DNA from: Microthrixaceae bacterium
GTDB lineage: Bacteria; Actinomycetota; Acidimicrobiia; Acidimicrobiales; Microtrichaceae
Assembly (NCBI GenBank): GCA_033813615.1
Contig: JAPXRJ010000001.1
Coordinates: 8,515 to 72,514, forward strand
Reading direction: 5' to 3'
DNA length: 64,000 bases
Position 1 is the stretch's first letter. Every line of letters begins with the position of its first letter. The notes below the pieces were generated by a model that saw nothing but the letters and a program-made list of their open reading frames with translations, did not search any database and was not told the DNA's origin. This document shows positions 1,175 to 7,851 of this stretch, piece by piece. Position numbers and translations under genes: made by a program.

Positions 1175-1295
1175 GCGCCCGGGAGCGGAAGGGCAGGGCT
1201 GAGCGCCCGGGAGCGGAAGGGCAGGGCTGAGCGCCCGGGAGCGGAAGGGCAGGGCTGAGCGCCCGGGAGCGGAAGGGCAGGGCTGAGCGCCCGGG
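1166..1295 (+). repeat. 28-bp tandem repeat CAGGGCTGAGCGCCCGGGAGCGGAAGGG, 4 full copies plus an 18-bp partial, starting at the purL stop
   Basis: Copies start at 1166, 1194, 1222, 1250, 1278; no spacers. Confidence 0.95.
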
Positions 1296-1329
1296 TCCCC
1301 CGACCACTCGCGTGGCCGGGGGACCCGGG
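1290..1329. terminator. GC-rich hairpin between convergent genes
   Basis: CCCGGGTCCCCCGACCAC-TCGC-GTGGCCGGGGGACCCGGG, 18-bp stem with one mismatch. Confidence 0.7.
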
Positions 1330-1333
1330 TCGA

Positions 1334-3127
1334 TCAGGCGAGGCCGCTACGGCGCCGGCGCTGCCAGCTGACGGCGGTGAGGGTGCCGCCGGCCAGCAGC
1401 AGCACGATGCCCAGGGCCAGCATCGGCGTGGCGCTCCCGCCGGTGAAGGCGAGCACCCCCGAGTTGCTGGCGGTGGCGTCGTCGGGCGTCACCACGGTCC
1501 GGATGGCCACGTCGTCCGCGACCGCCGACGGCACCGACGACGAGGTCGACCCCGCGATCGTCGAGCTGGTGGACGAGGTGGACGACGTCGGAGCGGTGCT
1601 GCTCGTCGGCGCGGCCGACGTGGTCGGCGCGACCGTGGTGGTGGGCGCCTCGGTCGTGGTCGTCGTGGAGGACGTGGTCGAGGAGCTGGTGGTCGTGGAG
1701 GAGCTCGTCGTCGTGGAAGAGCTCGTGGAGGAGCTCGTGGTGGAGGATCGATCGTTGGTGTAGGTGCAGGTCACCGCGTCGCCCGGCGCGAGGTTGGCGA
1801 CGAAGGACGACCCCTCGATCGTCGGCGTGCGACCGCTCGTCGGGGTGGTGCAGGCCAGATCCTTCAACGTCCAGCCGGTCGGGACCTCCTCGGCCACGGT
1901 CCATGTGACGTCTGCTGAGCGCACGAAGCTGATCTCGGCGGACCCGCCGGTGCCCTCGGGCCTCAGGCTGAAGGTGCCGCCCGGGATGAACGACGTGTCA
2001 CCGGTGAAGTTGAAGGTGGTGCCGCCGGGTGAGCGCTCGGTGAGCTGCTTGCGCACGGTGATGGTCACCGGCTCCGGTGGCTGGGCCACGTAGTAGGCGA
2101 AGCAGTACGCGTGACGAGCGTTGGTGGGGTAACGGACGTACTCGACGTTGTCGCCGTTGTAGTTGTCGGTGGCGCAGCGCAGCGCCCCGAACGACAGCGT
2201 GCCGTCGCCCAGCGGCTGGGCCTTGGTGCCGCCCTGGATCCACAGCGACCCACGGCCGGCCTGGTTGACCTGGTCCGAGGTGAGCTCGTAGGTCACCGCG
2301 CCCTTGATCGTCCGGCCGGTGTCGTTGCCGGCGGAGTCGAGCTCGGGCACCGACGCCACCGTGGTGGCGATGGCGTTCGCCCCCGTCACCGTCGACAGGT
2401 TGGCGGTGGCCGGGGACTTCCCGGTGATGCCCGTGCCCCACTGGAAGTCCCAACCCGTCAGCGGCGAGCAGTTGCTCTGCGGCGCCTCGGCCTCCTTGGC
2501 CGGGTTGACCACCTGGCCGTCTGCGTAGTTCGTGTCGGGTCCCAGGTCCTGCAGGCTCTCCTGGATGTTGTTGCGGTTCCGGTTGGCGAAGATGTCGGTG
2601 TAGGTGGGGCAGGTGCGGGCCGCCAGCGTCACCGTCCACGGGCGCGCCTTGCTGGATGCCTGGGAGCCGGCCAGGGAGGAGGCCAGGCCGGTCGAGGCGC
2701 AGAACTGCACGTTGGAGATCTGGGGGACCATCCCGCCCACGGGGTCCAATCGCTCGTTGGAGAAGGAGCCGGCCATCTGGCTGGGGTCGATGGTCGTCGT
2801 GGCCGACCCGGGTCCGCCCTTGACCACCACGGCGCCGACGAGCCGGGTGGACGCCCACGAGCCGCCGGTGCCGGTGCCGTCGGTGATCGTGACCGCCGAG
2901 GGGTCCCCGCCGGTGCCACGGAACACCCCGTCGACGAGGTCGTAGTGGGCCAGCAGCGTCGTGCCCTCCGGGCAGGTCGGCTGGTCCGACGACGACGTGG
3001 TGCTGACCAAGCCGACCGCCACGAGGACCGCGCCGATCAACAGGGTGACGATGCCGGCCCGGAACGCTCCTGCGGCTCGCCCGCCGGAGGTTCGGTCGGA
3101 TGTGGTGGGGCTGGGGGAGTCGGTCAT
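1334..3127 (-). CDS. Secreted, probably sortase-anchored surface protein with a SpaA/prealbumin-like domain and Ser/Thr-rich stalk
   Basis: N-terminal hydrophobic segment; V-x-E-x-x-P-x-GW...C...CTYTN pilin-type module; S/T linker; C-terminal LAFTG + TM + RRRR; ATGA overlap with upstream gene. Confidence 0.75.
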   Translation of the reverse strand: MTDSPSPTTSDRTSGGRAAGAFRAGIVTLLIGAVLVAVGLVSTTSSSDQPTCPEGTTLLAHYDLVDGVFRGTGGDPSAVTITDGTGTGGSWASTRLVGAVVVKGGPGSATTTIDPSQMAGSFSNERLDPVGGMVPQISNVQFCASTGLASSLAGSQASSKARPWTVTLAARTCPTYTDIFANRNRNNIQESLQDLGPDTNYADGQVVNPAKEAEAPQSNCSPLTGWDFQWGTGITGKSPATANLSTVTGANAIATTVASVPELDSAGNDTGRTIKGAVTYELTSDQVNQAGRGSLWIQGGTKAQPLGDGTLSFGALRCATDNYNGDNVEYVRYPTNARHAYCFAYYVAQPPEPVTITVRKQLTERSPGGTTFNFTGDTSFIPGGTFSLRPEGTGGSAEISFVRSADVTWTVAEEVPTGWTLKDLACTTPTSGRTPTIEGSSFVANLAPGDAVTCTYTNDRSSTTSSSTSSSTTTSSSTTTSSSTTSSTTTTTEAPTTTVAPTTSAAPTSSTAPTSSTSSTSSTIAGSTSSSVPSAVADDVAIRTVVTPDDATASNSGVLAFTGGSATPMLALGIVLLLAGGTLTAVSWQRRRRSGLA

Positions 3128-5517
3128 GGTCGGTCCCTGGTCGTGTCGATGGGGTCGCGCTGCGGGGCGCGGCGAGCGTTCGCTCCAGTTGTCGTCGGCA
3201 CCTCGTCGTCCACCTTGAGGGGTCGCGGCGTCGCGTCCGGCCGGTGCCGGCGGGGGCGGAGCACGAACAGCACGAGCCCGACGACCAGCGTGCCGACGGC
3301 GACAGCCCAGCCGAGGGAGGTCCGCACCAGCGTCAGCGGTCGACCGATGGCGGGGATCGACGCCGTCACCACGCCGACCGGCGTCGACGCGGGGACCGTC
3401 CAGAACTCGCTGCCGTCGTTGGCGTCGCCACGGGTCTCGACGGCGACGTCGTCGCCGCGTCGCTCCACCGAACGCACGCGGTGGGTCAGGCTGTCCATGG
3501 CCTGGGGGGCGCCGAAGCGGGTCACCACCTGGCCGGGTCGCAGGTCGCCCGCCGTCCGCTCGGACACCAGCACCACGTCGCCGATGGAGTAGGTCGGCTC
3601 CATCGAGCCGCTGCGGACGACCAACGGTCGGAAGCCGGCCAGCACCAGCATCAGCAGGCCGGCGACGGCCACCGAGACCACGACGACCAGGCCGATCGTG
3701 AGCCGGTCGGCCCACCGCTGGGGGCCCGCGTGAGGCTCCGGCCGTTGACCGACAGCGGTCCGCGGCGCCACCTCCCGGTGCTCCACCGCTGCCGACACCA
3801 GCAGCGAGTCCCAGCGACCGGCGTCGGGGCGCACAGCGCGGAGCTCGACTCCGAGGAGCTCGGTGCTGTGGGAGGTCCGGCGGCGGTCGGCGACGGTCCC
3901 GTCGAGCACGATCGGCGGGCCGGGAGGCGCGTCCACCCGGACGGTCAGCTCGTCCCCGGGGGCCAATCCGCTCCGCGGACCGGCCAGGGCGAACCCGCCG
4001 GGCGAGCCGTCGAGAAGTCGACGACCGGCCGCTGCCGCGCCGTCGTCTGCGTCGCTGTCCGCCCCGTCGTCTGCGCTGTCGTCTGCCCCGTCGAGGGTCG
4101 CCGGCAGGTCGAGCGGGATGCGGAACCCCACGCGGGACCACGTCCGCTCCACCAGCGATCGGACGGTGAGCACCCACAGCAGCACCAGCAGCACCGCGGC
4201 GGCCGCGGAGGCGACGCGACCGGTCTGGTCCCCGGGCGTCGAGCCCAGCGCGGCGGTACCGGCAGCAGCGGTGGCAACCAGACCCAACCAGACCAGCGGT
4301 CGGGTGGGCACCCGCCGGTGACCGGATCGGGGTCGTCGGGTGACGGCCGACGCGGTCGCGGTCAGGGACCCCGGCACGGCGTAGAGCGCCCCGACGGCAT
4401 CGGCCACGGGCGCCGGCCGGGTTCGGGTGGACCACCTCAGCGCGCACCAGCGCAGCAACGTCGACGCCAGCACGAGCCCGGCGACGACCCTGTCGCCGCC
4501 CTGCAGCGGCGAGCCGCCCGCCAGCATCGCCAGGACCGCCAGCCACCACAGCACCGACCAGCCGAACAGCGCCCGGACGGCCAGGCCCGCGACGATCATG
4601 CGGGAGCGCAGCGGGACGCGGCGACCGAGCGTGGCGTCGGCCAGGTCCGCCGCGGCGGCGCACTGCCGCGCCGTCGTGTCGGGCCAGTAGCCGGTGGCCG
4701 ACACGGGTGCCGCCCGGACCGCCAGGCATCGACCGATCGTGGCGCCCCGATGGCCCTCCGGCACTCGGGCGCGCAGCCAGCTCCCCAGGGGCCGGCCGTC
4801 GGGGAGCGGGTGGTCGCGCAGCAACGACGAGGTCACGACGGTGGCGTCGGGCTCCCAGAGGGCGACACCGGCCGCTCCGGCCAGGTGGCGCAGCCGGGCG
4901 TCGAGCCGGTCCCGTCGAGCGGGGCCGAACCGGTCCGGGTTGAGCGTCTCGGCGGTGCCCACCACCCATGACGCCCCGCCGGCCAGCTCGGCGGCAGCGG
5001 CACGGCACCCGTCCGGGTCGGGCACGGCGCGGGCGGAGCAGACCAGGACGGCGTCGCAGCGGCCAGCGAGGTCGGCCGCTGCCCTGTCGACCGCCGATCC
5101 CGCTTCGACGCCACGGTGGACCAGAACCCGGGGGTCCAGACCGGGTGGGGCGTCCCGGCCCGGCGGCACCACCAGCGCGACCGGCCCCGTGGTGGCAGCA
5201 GCGGAGGTCATCGTCCTGGCCACCACGTCCGGGACGTCGCCCAGGTGGACCAACGTGCCCAACACCGGGGGCTGGTCATCGTCGAGCGGTGTCGGCGCCG
5301 GTCGGCGCGTCGGGGCCAGCGCCACGGCCACGGCGCCGCCGAGCCCCCACAGGATGGCCGCCACCAGCACGACGACCAGCGCCCAGCGGTCCGCGGTGGC
5401 CCACGCGACGGTGACTGCGGCCGCCGCACCGCCGGTGAGCACCGCGACGGCGGCGCAGGCGCGACCGGCCAGGGCTGCTGCACGGGTACGCCGCTGGTCG
5501 TGGTCCTCGGCGTGCAC
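3124..5517 (-). CDS. Fusion protein: degenerate cellulose-synthase-like GT2 membrane domain + PilZ + SipW-type signal peptidase I
   Basis: GTG start with GGGAGG RBS; C-terminal SGSMEP...THRV...RGDAN; PilZ RVGFR...DGSPGG; N-terminal half follows BcsA layout without catalytic motifs. Confidence 0.75.
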   Translation of the reverse strand: MHAEDHDQRRTRAAALAGRACAAVAVLTGGAAAAVTVAWATADRWALVVVLVAAILWGLGGAVAVALAPTRRPAPTPLDDDQPPVLGTLVHLGDVPDVVARTMTSAAATTGPVALVVPPGRDAPPGLDPRVLVHRGVEAGSAVDRAAADLAGRCDAVLVCSARAVPDPDGCRAAAAELAGGASWVVGTAETLNPDRFGPARRDRLDARLRHLAGAAGVALWEPDATVVTSSLLRDHPLPDGRPLGSWLRARVPEGHRGATIGRCLAVRAAPVSATGYWPDTTARQCAAAADLADATLGRRVPLRSRMIVAGLAVRALFGWSVLWWLAVLAMLAGGSPLQGGDRVVAGLVLASTLLRWCALRWSTRTRPAPVADAVGALYAVPGSLTATASAVTRRPRSGHRRVPTRPLVWLGLVATAAAGTAALGSTPGDQTGRVASAAAAVLLVLLWVLTVRSLVERTWSRVGFRIPLDLPATLDGADDSADDGADSDADDGAAAAGRRLLDGSPGGFALAGPRSGLAPGDELTVRVDAPPGPPIVLDGTVADRRRTSHSTELLGVELRAVRPDAGRWDSLLVSAAVEHREVAPRTAVGQRPEPHAGPQRWADRLTIGLVVVVSVAVAGLLMLVLAGFRPLVVRSGSMEPTYSIGDVVLVSERTAGDLRPGQVVTRFGAPQAMDSLTHRVRSVERRGDDVAVETRGDANDGSEFWTVPASTPVGVVTASIPAIGRPLTLVRTSLGWAVAVGTLVVGLVLFVLRPRRHRPDATPRPLKVDDEVPTTTGANARRAPQRDPIDTTRDRP

Positions 5518-5676
5518 ACCCTCCCGTCGGGTCGACGGGCTCTGACCTGAGCAAAGCGCATGCGAACGGCAGCCAAGGGCGCTGATCCCGGAATCGGGGC
5601 GTCCGCCGGTACCGTTGCGGGTTCGGACGAGCGACCGGGGGCGGGTCGACGGAGCGGAGAGGTCGGAGTCGAGCCG

Positions 5677-7851
5677 ATGCGTGGAGTGCTCAGAGCGGGT
5701 TGGCCCGCGGTGTTGCTGGTGGCCTTCGGAGTCGTCGTGCTCACCGGTTGCCTGGGGCCCGACGAGCCGGATCCGACCGGAACCGCGCCGTTCGGCCACC
5801 TCGACGCGGTGGTGGCGGTCCCCGGCGGGTTCCGTGCCGTCGGCTGGGTCGTCGACCCCGACACCGCCGCCCCGATCGAGGTGACGGTCTCCTCCGAGCA
5901 GCGCACGGTCAAGGGCGTCGCCGACGGCGACAGGCCCGACCTGGTGTTCGCCACCCGCGGTCTCGGCACCCGTCACGGCTTCGACGTCCGCTTCGGGGGG
6001 CTCGGCCCCGGACCGCACCAGGTGTGCGTGTGGGCCGACAACGTCGGTCGCGGCAGCCGGGCACGGGCGTTGGGTTGCACGTACGTCACTGTTCCGGAGC
6101 CCAGCCCGTTCGGCAGCCTGGAGCTCGTCGCTCCGGCCGGTGACCGGCGGGTGCACCTCTCCGGTTGGGCGATCGATCCGGACACCTCGGCACCGATCGG
6201 TGTGGGCGTCCTGCTCGACGGCAAGCCCGTCCTGAACGCGGTGGCCTCGCAGGCTCGGCCGGATGTGGCCGGTCTCGGGTTCGGCACGGCGCACGGGTTC
6301 TCCTTCGACGTCCCGGCGGAGCCGGGTCCGCACCAGCTGTGCGTGATCGCCGAGAACGTGGGGCCGGGCGCGCACTCGTGGCTGGGCTGTCGTGTCGTCG
6401 CCGTGCCGGAGCCTCGGCCCGACCGTCGGCCGGTCGGTTCGGTGACCGCGGTGGAGCCGCAGCCGGGCGCCGGCGCGGTCGCCGTCAGAGGCACCGCGAG
6501 CGATCCCGACACCACCGCTGCGCTGCAGGTGCGGATCGCCGTCGACGGCGTGACGACCACGGTCTCGACGAGCGGCGGAAGCTACTCGACGGTGATCTCG
6601 GGTCTGTCGGCCGGAACCCATCGCGTCTGCGTCACCGCCGTCGACGCTCCGTACCGCGGAGCCGGTGCGGTCATCACCGGGGACCGATCGTGGCCGTGCG
6701 GGACCGTGATCCTCGGCGACGTGTCGGTGGGGAGCTCCGGGGCCCCCGGCGGCCCGACGGTGCCGGTCGGACCGTCGGCCGCGAGCCCGATCGCCACCGT
6801 GGACCGCGACGCCGGCATCAGCGTGCAGCTCAACGACGGGTCGGTGCTGTGGCTGTTCGGCGACTCGAGCCAGCTCGACTGGGCAGGTCGGCTCCAGTAC
6901 TTCGTCAACAACACCGCGGCGTGGGCGCCCGCCGGCAGCCCGACCGTCACCCGCGACGCCGTCCAGGGCGGCGCGCCGGTGCAGTTCGTGACGCCGGCCG
7001 GGTCGTCGTGGACGTGTCCGGCCGACCACCCGAACAAGGCCATGTGGCCGGCGTCGGCGGTTCGCACCGACGGCAACGACGGCGCCGGAGGTCGGGACCT
7101 GGTGACCGCGTTCTTCTCCAACGTGTGCCTGGGCGACGAGTTCCTCGAGATCGTCGCCAAGGGCATCTCGGTCGTGCAGTGGACCTACGACCCGGCCAAC
7201 AAGCCGAACGGCACGCCGATCCAGGGCACGGTGGTCAACCACGAGCTGTGGCCCACCCAGGAGTACGGCCAGGCGGCCACCACCCGGACCGTGTCGGGGA
7301 CCACCTACGTCTACGGCTACAAGTGCGTCACTCCGCCCCAGGGCACACCTCTGTGGCCGAACGTGCTCGGCCCCTGCCACGTCGGTCGTGTCCCGGTCGG
7401 CTCCGTGACGACGGCGTCCTCGTGGCGCTACTGGAACGGCTCGGGCTGGGTGACCGACCCGGCGCAGGCCGCTGCGGTCATCCCCGGTCCGGCTCCGGGC
7501 GTGGCCGACACCCGCGCTCCCGTCGCAGGCGCCACGGTGTCCTTCGACGCCACCCACGGCGTGTACGTGATGGGCTACAGCCCGTGGCCCGGCTTCAGCG
7601 ACCGGGTCTTCGTCCGCGTCGCCACCGCGCCGGAAGGCCCGTGGAGCGACGTCGTCGAGGTCGCGCTCCCCGGATGCGACGACCGCGTCGGCTCGTCGGA
7701 GTTCTACTGCTACGCCGGCACGGTCCAACCGGCGCTGAGCGAGCCGGGCCTGCTCGGCGTGGGCTACTACGACCAGTTGGTCGCGGTCGGGCCGAACAGA
7801 GGTCAGTACCTGACGGTGAAGGTGCCGTTCCACGTCGTGATCACGGGTTGA
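5677..7851 (+). CDS. Lipoprotein with three GW..DPD/RPD/HGF repeat modules and a DUF4185-like C-terminal domain
   Basis: Lipobox LTGC; repeats G-x-x-D...GW-x-x-DPD...RPD...HGF...VC; DAGISV..DG..LWLFGDS motif. Confidence 0.7.
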   Translation: MRGVLRAGWPAVLLVAFGVVVLTGCLGPDEPDPTGTAPFGHLDAVVAVPGGFRAVGWVVDPDTAAPIEVTVSSEQRTVKGVADGDRPDLVFATRGLGTRHGFDVRFGGLGPGPHQVCVWADNVGRGSRARALGCTYVTVPEPSPFGSLELVAPAGDRRVHLSGWAIDPDTSAPIGVGVLLDGKPVLNAVASQARPDVAGLGFGTAHGFSFDVPAEPGPHQLCVIAENVGPGAHSWLGCRVVAVPEPRPDRRPVGSVTAVEPQPGAGAVAVRGTASDPDTTAALQVRIAVDGVTTTVSTSGGSYSTVISGLSAGTHRVCVTAVDAPYRGAGAVITGDRSWPCGTVILGDVSVGSSGAPGGPTVPVGPSAASPIATVDRDAGISVQLNDGSVLWLFGDSSQLDWAGRLQYFVNNTAAWAPAGSPTVTRDAVQGGAPVQFVTPAGSSWTCPADHPNKAMWPASAVRTDGNDGAGGRDLVTAFFSNVCLGDEFLEIVAKGISVVQWTYDPANKPNGTPIQGTVVNHELWPTQEYGQAATTRTVSGTTYVYGYKCVTPPQGTPLWPNVLGPCHVGRVPVGSVTTASSWRYWNGSGWVTDPAQAAAVIPGPAPGVADTRAPVAGATVSFDATHGVYVMGYSPWPGFSDRVFVRVATAPEGPWSDVVEVALPGCDDRVGSSEFYCYAGTVQPALSEPGLLGVGYYDQLVAVGPNRGQYLTVKVPFHVVITG

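Follow-up and report, generated by a model that had tools for sequence, protein, structure and literature searches.

What can a cell do with a cellulose synthase that has lost its catalytic residues and carries a signal peptidase at its end? This question is raised by a gene pair in a stretch of 64,000 nucleotides from a Microthrixaceae bacterium (GenBank assembly GCA_033813615.1, contig JAPXRJ010000001.1, positions 8,515 to 72,514 of the forward strand), called the window throughout. The pair consists of a fusion gene and of the gene of a surface protein, here called the partner:

3124..5517, minus strand: fusion gene, pseudo-BcsA joined to PilZ and a SipW-type signal peptidase (797 residues, GTG start)
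1334..3127, minus strand: surface protein with sortase signal (597 residues), the partner and predicted substrate

A sequence-only reading of this locus had proposed a signal peptidase gated by cyclic di-guanosine monophosphate (c-di-GMP), which controls release or assembly of an adhesin and uses a repurposed synthase as membrane scaffold. Both open reading frames (ORFs) lie at the coordinates given there, on the minus strand and overlapping by ATGA, and all quoted motifs (SAR, LWEPDA, YWPDTTARQ, RVGFR, DGSPGG, SGSMEP, THR, RGDAN and LAFTG-TM-RRRR, where TM is a transmembrane helix) are present in the translations. Upstream of the assigned starts both frames stay open, the fusion frame to 8682 and the partner frame to 5008; judged from homologues, which begin within ~30 residues of the start given earlier, the assigned starts are plausible though not proven.

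Our answer, to which we give slightly better than an even chance, is that the fusion protein would be a membrane c-di-GMP receptor gating signal-peptide processing of the adjacent sortase-anchored surface protein. Three of its elements, i.e. c-di-GMP binding, partner cleavage and coupling across the membrane, are what we infer, and the likelihoods given below for single steps (dead synthase, binding, cutting and ligand dependence) are partly interdependent.

The fusion is real and recurs in Acidimicrobiia

A protein search returned 88 homologues at E ≤ 0.001, most of them covering ≥80% of the query, and those with a named organism are Microthrixaceae or Acidimicrobiia. When the N-terminal 586 residues were used in an exhaustive search, 101 clusters at 50% identity were obtained: 64 hold all three parts, three hold the peptidase and one other part, and the 34 without peptidase are mostly fragments or frame-shifted products, with at least four complete stand-alone proteins. 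Among 401 Acidimicrobiia genomes, nine from three families have the full fusion, and five of a fourth family have the N-terminal part alone. The same fusion is thus found in other genomes, as the sequence-only reading had advised checking. A single-protein query of a phylum-wide sample of 401 genomes gave, besides the source genome, one weak partial match and no further full match.

Could the fusion result from faulty assembly or a frame error, or is the gene decaying? Frameshifts in three loci (L002, L003 and L008) would fit such an explanation, to which we give next to no chance: contigs of two other runs (X8 and X11, one of them not flagged as a possible source) span 1266-5800 with zero differences, and the 88 homologues are of similar length with invariant functional residues. 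For the window, the assembly or sequencing error that had been named as a possible flaw is already refuted. Contigs from RNA libraries cover the fusion gene partly (two runs of one study), a coverage that does not show transcription.

Databases label the fusion proteins simply 'signal peptidase I', because no sequence profile detects the dead synthase. Sequence profile searches gave no match of glycosyltransferase family 2 (GT2) to the fusion protein, and its kinship with BcsA is detectable only through the family profile and the fold.

A cellulose synthase fold without catalytic residues

The fusion protein was divided into the following parts, listed from the N-terminus:

5317..5463, minus strand: two N-terminal membrane helices (residues 19-67), counterparts of the pair that precedes the GT domain in BcsA; from hydropathy, model and alignment
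4630..5268, minus strand: GT2-fold domain without catalytic motifs (residues 84-296), with pocket residues S161, R163, N193, D195, W221, E222, D224, R268, W278 and R284 conserved family-specifically; from model, hhalign and conservation
4144..4611, minus strand: BcsA-like membrane helix bundle (residues 303-458), without the FxVTxK motif of the gating loop; from model and alignment
3781..4134, minus strand: PilZ domain (residues 462-579), with R462-x3-R466, D503-x-S505-x-x-G508 and hinge helix; from profile, model and conservation
3259..3723, minus strand: SipW/Sec11-type signal peptidase between two membrane helices (residues 599-753), with S638, H679 and D698; from profile and conservation

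A structure model was built from an 85-sequence alignment (predicted local distance difference test, pLDDT, 86; predicted template modelling score 0.83). Its top Foldseek match was c-di-GMP-bound BcsA (E 6.1e-19), and structural alignment to BcsA extended over model residues 9-627 (Z 18.7, root mean square deviation 4.5, 557 residues aligned). The BcsA layout claimed from the letters alone is therefore borne out by the modelled structure, including a GT2/BcsA-like N-terminal part. What is shared with BcsA is the whole fold and domain order over ~560 residues and the RxxxR and DxSxxG motifs.

Among proteins with intact motifs, the closest relatives are BcsA-like GT2-PilZ proteins from the same class; an hhalign comparison with four of them, all motifs kept, gave a probability of 97.9. 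In this alignment DADH maps to SARA, LDDG to VVPP and FWCGS to LWEPD, and TED, QxxRW and FxVTxK are lost, which reproduces the correspondences first read by eye (DxD to SAR, FxCGS to LWEPD, TED and QxxRW lost). Of the 88 aligned sequences, none of the 86 covered there has Asp at either DxD position, and R284, one arginine in the QxxRW region, is invariant (88/88). With the roles of the motifs taken from the available text of PMC8892547, the protein has the fold of BcsA and processive GT2 enzymes (GT2, membrane bundle and PilZ), and it lacks the catalytic motifs D,D,D (DDG, DxD and TED) and QxxRW, the FxVTxK gating loop and the Arg-Glu latch. We consider it very probably dead as a synthase. It differs from BcsA also in having two N-terminal helices only and a C-terminal helix that leads into the peptidase, and no BcsB was seen near it.

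Another possibility is that the GT domain is altered rather than dead, and would bind a nucleotide sugar or another ligand without help of a metal, or carry out an unusual transfer, in either case under c-di-GMP control as in BcsA, with the peptidase as passenger or second output. The GT region is indeed more constrained than PilZ (43/212 versus 10/102 columns conserved at ≥90%), its acidic metal ligands have given way to conserved Ser/Arg, and R163, R268, R284, E222 and D224 are kept. The former active site is thus constrained with residues of its own and may bind a ligand. However, the D,D,D and QxxRW elements are all missing, stand-alone proteins and a second group (described below) carry different residues at the same motifs, and a Pfam scan of 13 neighbourhoods (84 ORFs from these loci and one pilin-like gene; 11 are fusion neighbourhoods) showed no recurring export or modification genes. 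We regard an altered GT as rather improbable.

The PilZ domain and its c-di-GMP context

The PilZ profile matches with E 1.6e-4 and 22.4 bits, just under the cut-off of 22.5. RxxxR is found in 88/88 and [DN]xSxxG in 68/88 aligned sequences, and the distant clusters give 74/74 and 63/74, respectively; in the window protein the two motifs appear as the RVGFR and DGSPGG on which the sequence-only reading had relied. RxxxR, [D/N]hSxxG (with h mostly Gly), the barrel strands and a C-terminal helix (566-579) are present as in canonical PilZ receptors, and the domain would with high probability bind c-di-GMP. An acidic low-complexity insert within the domain (window 4028-4093, residues ~476-497) is missing from most homologues.

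GGDEF matches number 14 in the source genome and 12-47 in the other eight fusion genomes. In 3 of the 11 fusion neighbourhoods, the flanking sequence fetched includes a GGDEF gene, and two of these three also adjoin an MshEN-PilB pilus cluster. At L004 and L055 (also L008), fusion and partner have an MshEN-PilB/PilC/pilin/PilT cluster on one side and on the other a subtilase, behind which comes a PAS-GGDEF-EAL gene.

The signal peptidase domain and its topology

The C-terminal part matches TIGR02228 (signal peptidase I) with 70.5 bits against a cut-off of 51.85 (E 1.4e-19), and Sec11 matches are found too. S638 and H679 are conserved in 87/87 sequences and D698 in 86/87, with Ser-His-Asp spacing of 41 and 19 as in B. 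subtilis SipW (Ser47/His87/Asp106; available text of PMC8767453). With these residues, the profile match and a membrane helix on either side, the domain belongs to SipW/S26B, and its Ser/His pair is as intact as had been claimed.

Hydropathy and the model put PilZ on the GT side, followed by the hinge helix (566-579) and, after a short linker, by a membrane helix (599-626); the peptidase site comes next, and the chain ends with another membrane helix and a basic tail. As modelled, this is the Sec11/SipW arrangement, compatible with a PilZ sensor inside and a peptidase site outside the cell. The structural alignments to BcsA extend into residues 608-627, as seen from their range ends only, and the model suggests that the first peptidase helix replaces the BcsA C-terminal helix. 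This first helix carries a fusion-specific Ser, present in 93% of fused and 10% of 58 stand-alone SipWs. Complex prediction of residues 8-585 with 596-757 and c-di-GMP scored 0.12, 0.31 and 0.09 (mark 0.32) and was counted neither way. The source genome also encodes a separate housekeeping signal peptidase and one sortase.

The partner is a stalked surface protein

The partner is composed as follows, from the N-terminus:

2990..3061, minus strand: conserved signal sequence with R23, G25, G32, A33, G39, T43 and T44; cleavage predicted after S46, from the register with T-x-A homologues
2699..2974, minus strand: unnamed N-terminal domain of 100 residues with two bracketing cysteines and a VKGG motif, constant in all partners read
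2072..2650, minus strand: middle domain of SpaA_4-bearing actinobacterial surface proteins, absent from many partners; structural lead only
1751..2062, minus strand: prealbumin-like SpaA_4 domain (residues 356-459); from profile
1523..1750, minus strand: Ser/Thr-rich stalk; from sequence
1334..1453, minus strand: sorting signal LAFTG, membrane helix and basic tail; LAxTG-type models match below their cut-offs

The SpaA_4 domain matches with E 7e-14 and the sorting signal is present, which agrees with the SpaA-like protein ending in LAFTG-TM-RRRR described earlier; among partner homologues, TIGR01167 is over cut-off in 3/8. Hence the protein has the properties of a sortase substrate (LPxTG-like motif, membrane helix, basic tail and a sortase in the genome). 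The properties of a SpaA-type major pilin are not seen: pilin domains are not found in all members, and no sortase gene occurs among the neighbours scanned (Pfam, 13 loci). Across the partners the signal sequence, the 100-residue domain, the Ser/Thr stalk and the sorting signal are constant and the middle is variable; one partner has a choice-of-anchor A domain in place of the SpaA-like domain. The VKGG domain has no Pfam family, and similar folds on PEP-CTERM and Bacteroidota surface proteins are a lead only; look-ups of this and the middle domain brought leads that were either unnamed or under the threshold. A single-sequence model of the partner (pLDDT 38) was unusable.

Because many partners lack the SpaA-like domain while the other parts are constant, assembly as in pilins is unlikely; the partner is a stalked surface protein and probably no pilin. 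As the C-terminal sortase signal is kept, N-terminal cleavage would free the tip and would not release the protein. The earlier proposal of 'release or assembly' of an adhesin is thus supported for the link to a surface protein, corrected as to release and unlikely as to assembly.

One may still consider a TasA-like or pilus-like fibre, in which cleavage would expose an N-terminal strand that polymerises the partner. The SipW substrates TasA and BsaA do polymerise after SipW-dependent export (available text of PMC7395162), and the window partner has, besides SpaA_4, a weak structural lead to a pilin domain (TM-score 0.56). Against this, residues after the predicted cut are variable, many partners consist of tip domain, stalk and sorting signal only, and a wall-sorting signal is present on every partner read to its end and absent from BsaA as described in the same text. 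With no sortase gene among the neighbours scanned and the choice-of-anchor A domain on one partner, we find a fibre improbable, more so than an altered GT.

Linkage and signal sequence of the partner

A same-strand LPxTG/LAxTG protein is adjacent to the fusion gene, upstream or downstream, in 40 of 48 loci (same-genome repeats removed, several remaining loci being near-copies), and each of the eight loci without it ends within 183 bases on one side. All nine fusion genomes have the partner; in two of them it is spread over contig ends.

Counted from the predicted cut, the signal carries Gly at positions -22, -15 and -8, Thr at -4 and -3, and Ala or Ser at -1. Of 27 partners, 25 match this pattern; since it served to find them, four positions are fixed by construction. 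A signal profile built without the window copy had the partner as its sole match in the source genome (31 bits, next 11.5). It gave no match beside stand-alone SipW or stand-alone pseudo-BcsA loci, and none on related domains from nine fusion-free genomes, where ordinary signal peptides are found as far as visible. The classical SipW-cognate model TIGR04088 did not match any of nine partners, and in five fusion genomes scanned no signal was over its cut-off (0/5); the usual SipW neighbour with a TIGR04088 signal is replaced here by a different conserved signal. This conserved signal is suggestive, not proof, of a dedicated substrate. The peptidase would, with good probability, cut the partner. 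A further candidate claim, that the signal is unusually conserved (0.52 versus 0.48 for the domain), was undone by a control without the four search positions.

A wider family of dead BcsA-PilZ proteins

The source genome encodes a second dead BcsA-PilZ protein of 1434 residues (G000:C19:16159-20463, minus strand; L156:3160-7464). It is fused via a signal-peptide-like segment to CarboxypepD_reg repeats, a Pro/Thr stalk and a C-terminal membrane helix, and it matches the fusion family profile at PilZ only (probability 15). A search with this protein in 351 class genomes gave 45 matches in 38 genomes, of which 22 were examined, chosen with bias to long frames. Seven keep all catalytic motifs and 15 have lost them. 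Every one of these 15 keeps RxxxR and Dx[ST]xxG, and in 10 the chain goes on after PilZ with a basic-hydrophobic-AxA segment, judged by eye to be an internal signal peptide. Behind it, Pfam CarboxypepD, SdrD-B or DUF11 repeats are found in 8 of the 10, one of which ends LPRTG. Members of this second group (L159, L160, L163, L165 twice, L166, L168, L172 and L174) reach ~3400 residues. Counted from the PilZ Asp, the internal segment starts after 108-118 residues (9 of 10 measured) and the first peptidase helix after 96-117 (15 SipW fusions). The same chassis would thus hold, in the slot right after PilZ, a signal peptidase in one group and a signal peptide in the other, which links it to the handling of signal peptides on the side of the substrate as well.

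In quick trees, a well-supported branch has the SipW fusions on one side; the stand-alone dead forms are their sister, and the second group stands apart. The free tree parts the dead groups, as if catalysis had been lost twice independently; a single clade of 34 dead proteins was not rejected (approximately unbiased test, p 0.30), and one common loss is compatible with the data.

Since the dead synthase exists alone and also with another output, receptor family describes it better than scaffold; the 'membrane scaffold' of the sequence-only reading was right about a repurposed synthase and understated its role. A broader proposal, which we put forward tentatively and at somewhat less than an even chance, is that Acidimicrobiia turned cellulose synthase into a transmembrane c-di-GMP receptor family that gates signal processing or export of surface proteins, one branch holding a signal peptidase and another the adhesin's own internal signal peptide.

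Several related genes were noted in passing. At L162, L164, L169, L170 and L175, dead BcsA-PilZ proteins stop soon after PilZ (L175 has a short tail of two helices), and no surface-protein neighbour was seen at these five loci. Stand-alone dead BcsA-PilZ proteins of family f30 (L023-L027, L049 and L050) include two directly behind pilin-like genes, and L048 holds a BcsA-like gene with intact motifs, likewise after a pilin-like gene. At L157 and L158, in two fusion-bearing genomes, intact-motif GT2 synthases carry a C-terminal domain that by eye is glycoside-hydrolase-like.

Is processing gated by the ligand?

In BcsA, ligand binding rotates the PilZ barrel by ~20 degrees around the hinge helix (available text of PMC8892547). 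For the fusion protein we propose that c-di-GMP binds the PilZ domain inside the cell, and that movement of PilZ and the hinge helix is passed to the next helix, i.e. the first membrane helix of the peptidase, where it would alter peptidase activity or its placement in the membrane. The peptidase would be dedicated to the unusual signal of the partner. Before cutting, both ends of the partner would be held, one by the signal anchor in the membrane and the other, with LAFTG, on the wall. Cutting would let the tip domain extend on the Ser/Thr stalk, with the sortase end still on the wall. Judging by BcsA activation, high c-di-GMP is somewhat more likely to switch processing on than off. That cutting depends on the ligand at all seems to us fairly probable.

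The serious competitor is a peptidase that is dedicated but always on; the dead BcsA-PilZ would then bind c-di-GMP for placement or for a third protein, e.g. type IV pilus machinery, and fusion would merely co-locate the two. This would fit stand-alone dead BcsA-PilZ without peptidase or partner, the two stand-alone genes beside pilin-like genes, the fusion loci adjoining MshEN-PilB clusters, and the loss of the BcsA latch and gating loop. On the other hand, the fusion has been kept across 64 clusters at 50% identity on one side of a well-supported branch, its first peptidase helix bears the fusion-specific Ser, and the second group puts a signal peptide in the same slot. An always-on peptidase is accordingly less probable in our view, though ahead of the altered GT.

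Other observations weigh against a ligand-gated peptidase as a whole. In the PilZ domain, the normally hydrophobic second position of the second motif is Gly in 76/88 sequences and its Ser is missing in 18/88. In BcsA, a glutamate latches the first PilZ arginine; its position is Val, Ser, Ala or Thr in 88/88 sequences here, and with the FxVTxK gating loop gone as well, the output path or switch must differ from that of BcsA. The GGDEF counts stand without a class-wide baseline. For the signal, the control without the four search positions gave a conservation of 0.44, next to 0.45 for the C-terminal anchor helix and 0.48 for the domain; because the signal is no more conserved than the anchor helix, a dedicated substrate is suggested at most. 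The fusion-free control rests mainly on one close case (G040), and the T-x-A/S site could fit a housekeeping peptidase too. Moreover, dead BcsA-PilZ occurs without attached output in five genomes and in 4 of the 15 motif-less proteins examined, and three of the first eight genome loci are frameshifted, by error or decay.

Comparison with known systems

In SipW operons (B. subtilis tapA-sipW-tasA and C. perfringens sipW-bsaA), as here, an ER/archaeal-type S26B Ser-His-Asp peptidase is found beside a secreted protein, and TasA, like the partner with its predicted cut, has Thr three residues before the cut (GGGTWA; available text of PMC10269814). By the available text of PMC7395162 and PMC8767453, known SipWs are small, stand-alone, transcriptionally controlled and act on fibre proteins without sorting signals. 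In contrast, the peptidase of the fusion is joined to a receptor-like module of 600 residues, and its partner has a sortase signal and a stalk and does not match TIGR04088. With SpaA-type pilins the window partner shares the SpaA_4 domain and the sorting signal, whereas the SpaA-like domain is optional among partners and no adjacent sortase was seen in the neighbourhoods scanned.

LapD/LapG consists of a HAMP-GGDEF-EAL receptor and a transglutaminase-like cysteine protease; profile scans found none of these domains in fusion or partner. In the LapD/LapG/LapA system, a degenerate enzyme acts as a membrane c-di-GMP receptor and controls an extracytoplasmic protease that cuts the adhesin N-terminus (available text of PMC3032545). 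The same logic would apply to the fusion by analogy. However, no domain is shared, receptor and protease would sit in one chain in a monoderm cell, and cleavage would display the adhesin instead of shedding it, probably with opposite sign.

No description of a pseudo-BcsA-PilZ-SipW architecture was found in the literature, with subscription papers mostly, and supplements, outside the search. 'Peptidase' is absent from the main text, as available, of a survey of PilZ architectures (10.1101/814665), whose supplements could list the architecture, and the available text of PMC10746217 counts GGDEF proteins only. On this search the fusion architecture appears new, and gating makes a good hypothesis.

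Type I signal peptidases are usually viewed as unregulated housekeeping or transcriptionally controlled enzymes. If the hypothesis is true, this type I signal peptidase would be the first that a ligand gates, and protein secretion would have a new checkpoint, i.e. a second-messenger-wired control point for surface display. Monoderm bacteria would have a counterpart of LapD/LapG made of unrelated parts, the few known actinobacterial c-di-GMP effectors would be joined by a further receptor family, and a polysaccharide synthase would be seen to serve again as signalling chassis, with outputs that can be exchanged. Carriers include Microthrixaceae from sludge and wastewater communities, where adhesion matters. 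Two genes suffice for the hypothesis, which is directly testable.

Surroundings of the gene pair

The pair is flanked by purL and an unrelated lipoprotein-like gene, neither of which is matched at this place in the 13 loci compared; no promoter or terminator consensus was found. The lipoprotein-like gene (5677-7851, plus strand, divergent, 724 residues) has repeated N-terminal domains, with several paralogues in the genome, and a DUF4185 domain, and its conservation beside the fusion elsewhere was not found. Between purL and the partner gene end lies a perfect 28-bp tandem repeat of 4.6 copies (1166-1295), and contig C23 carries a related array. At another locus (L053:1-5124), a class II ribonucleotide reductase with a LAGLIDADG intein was seen.

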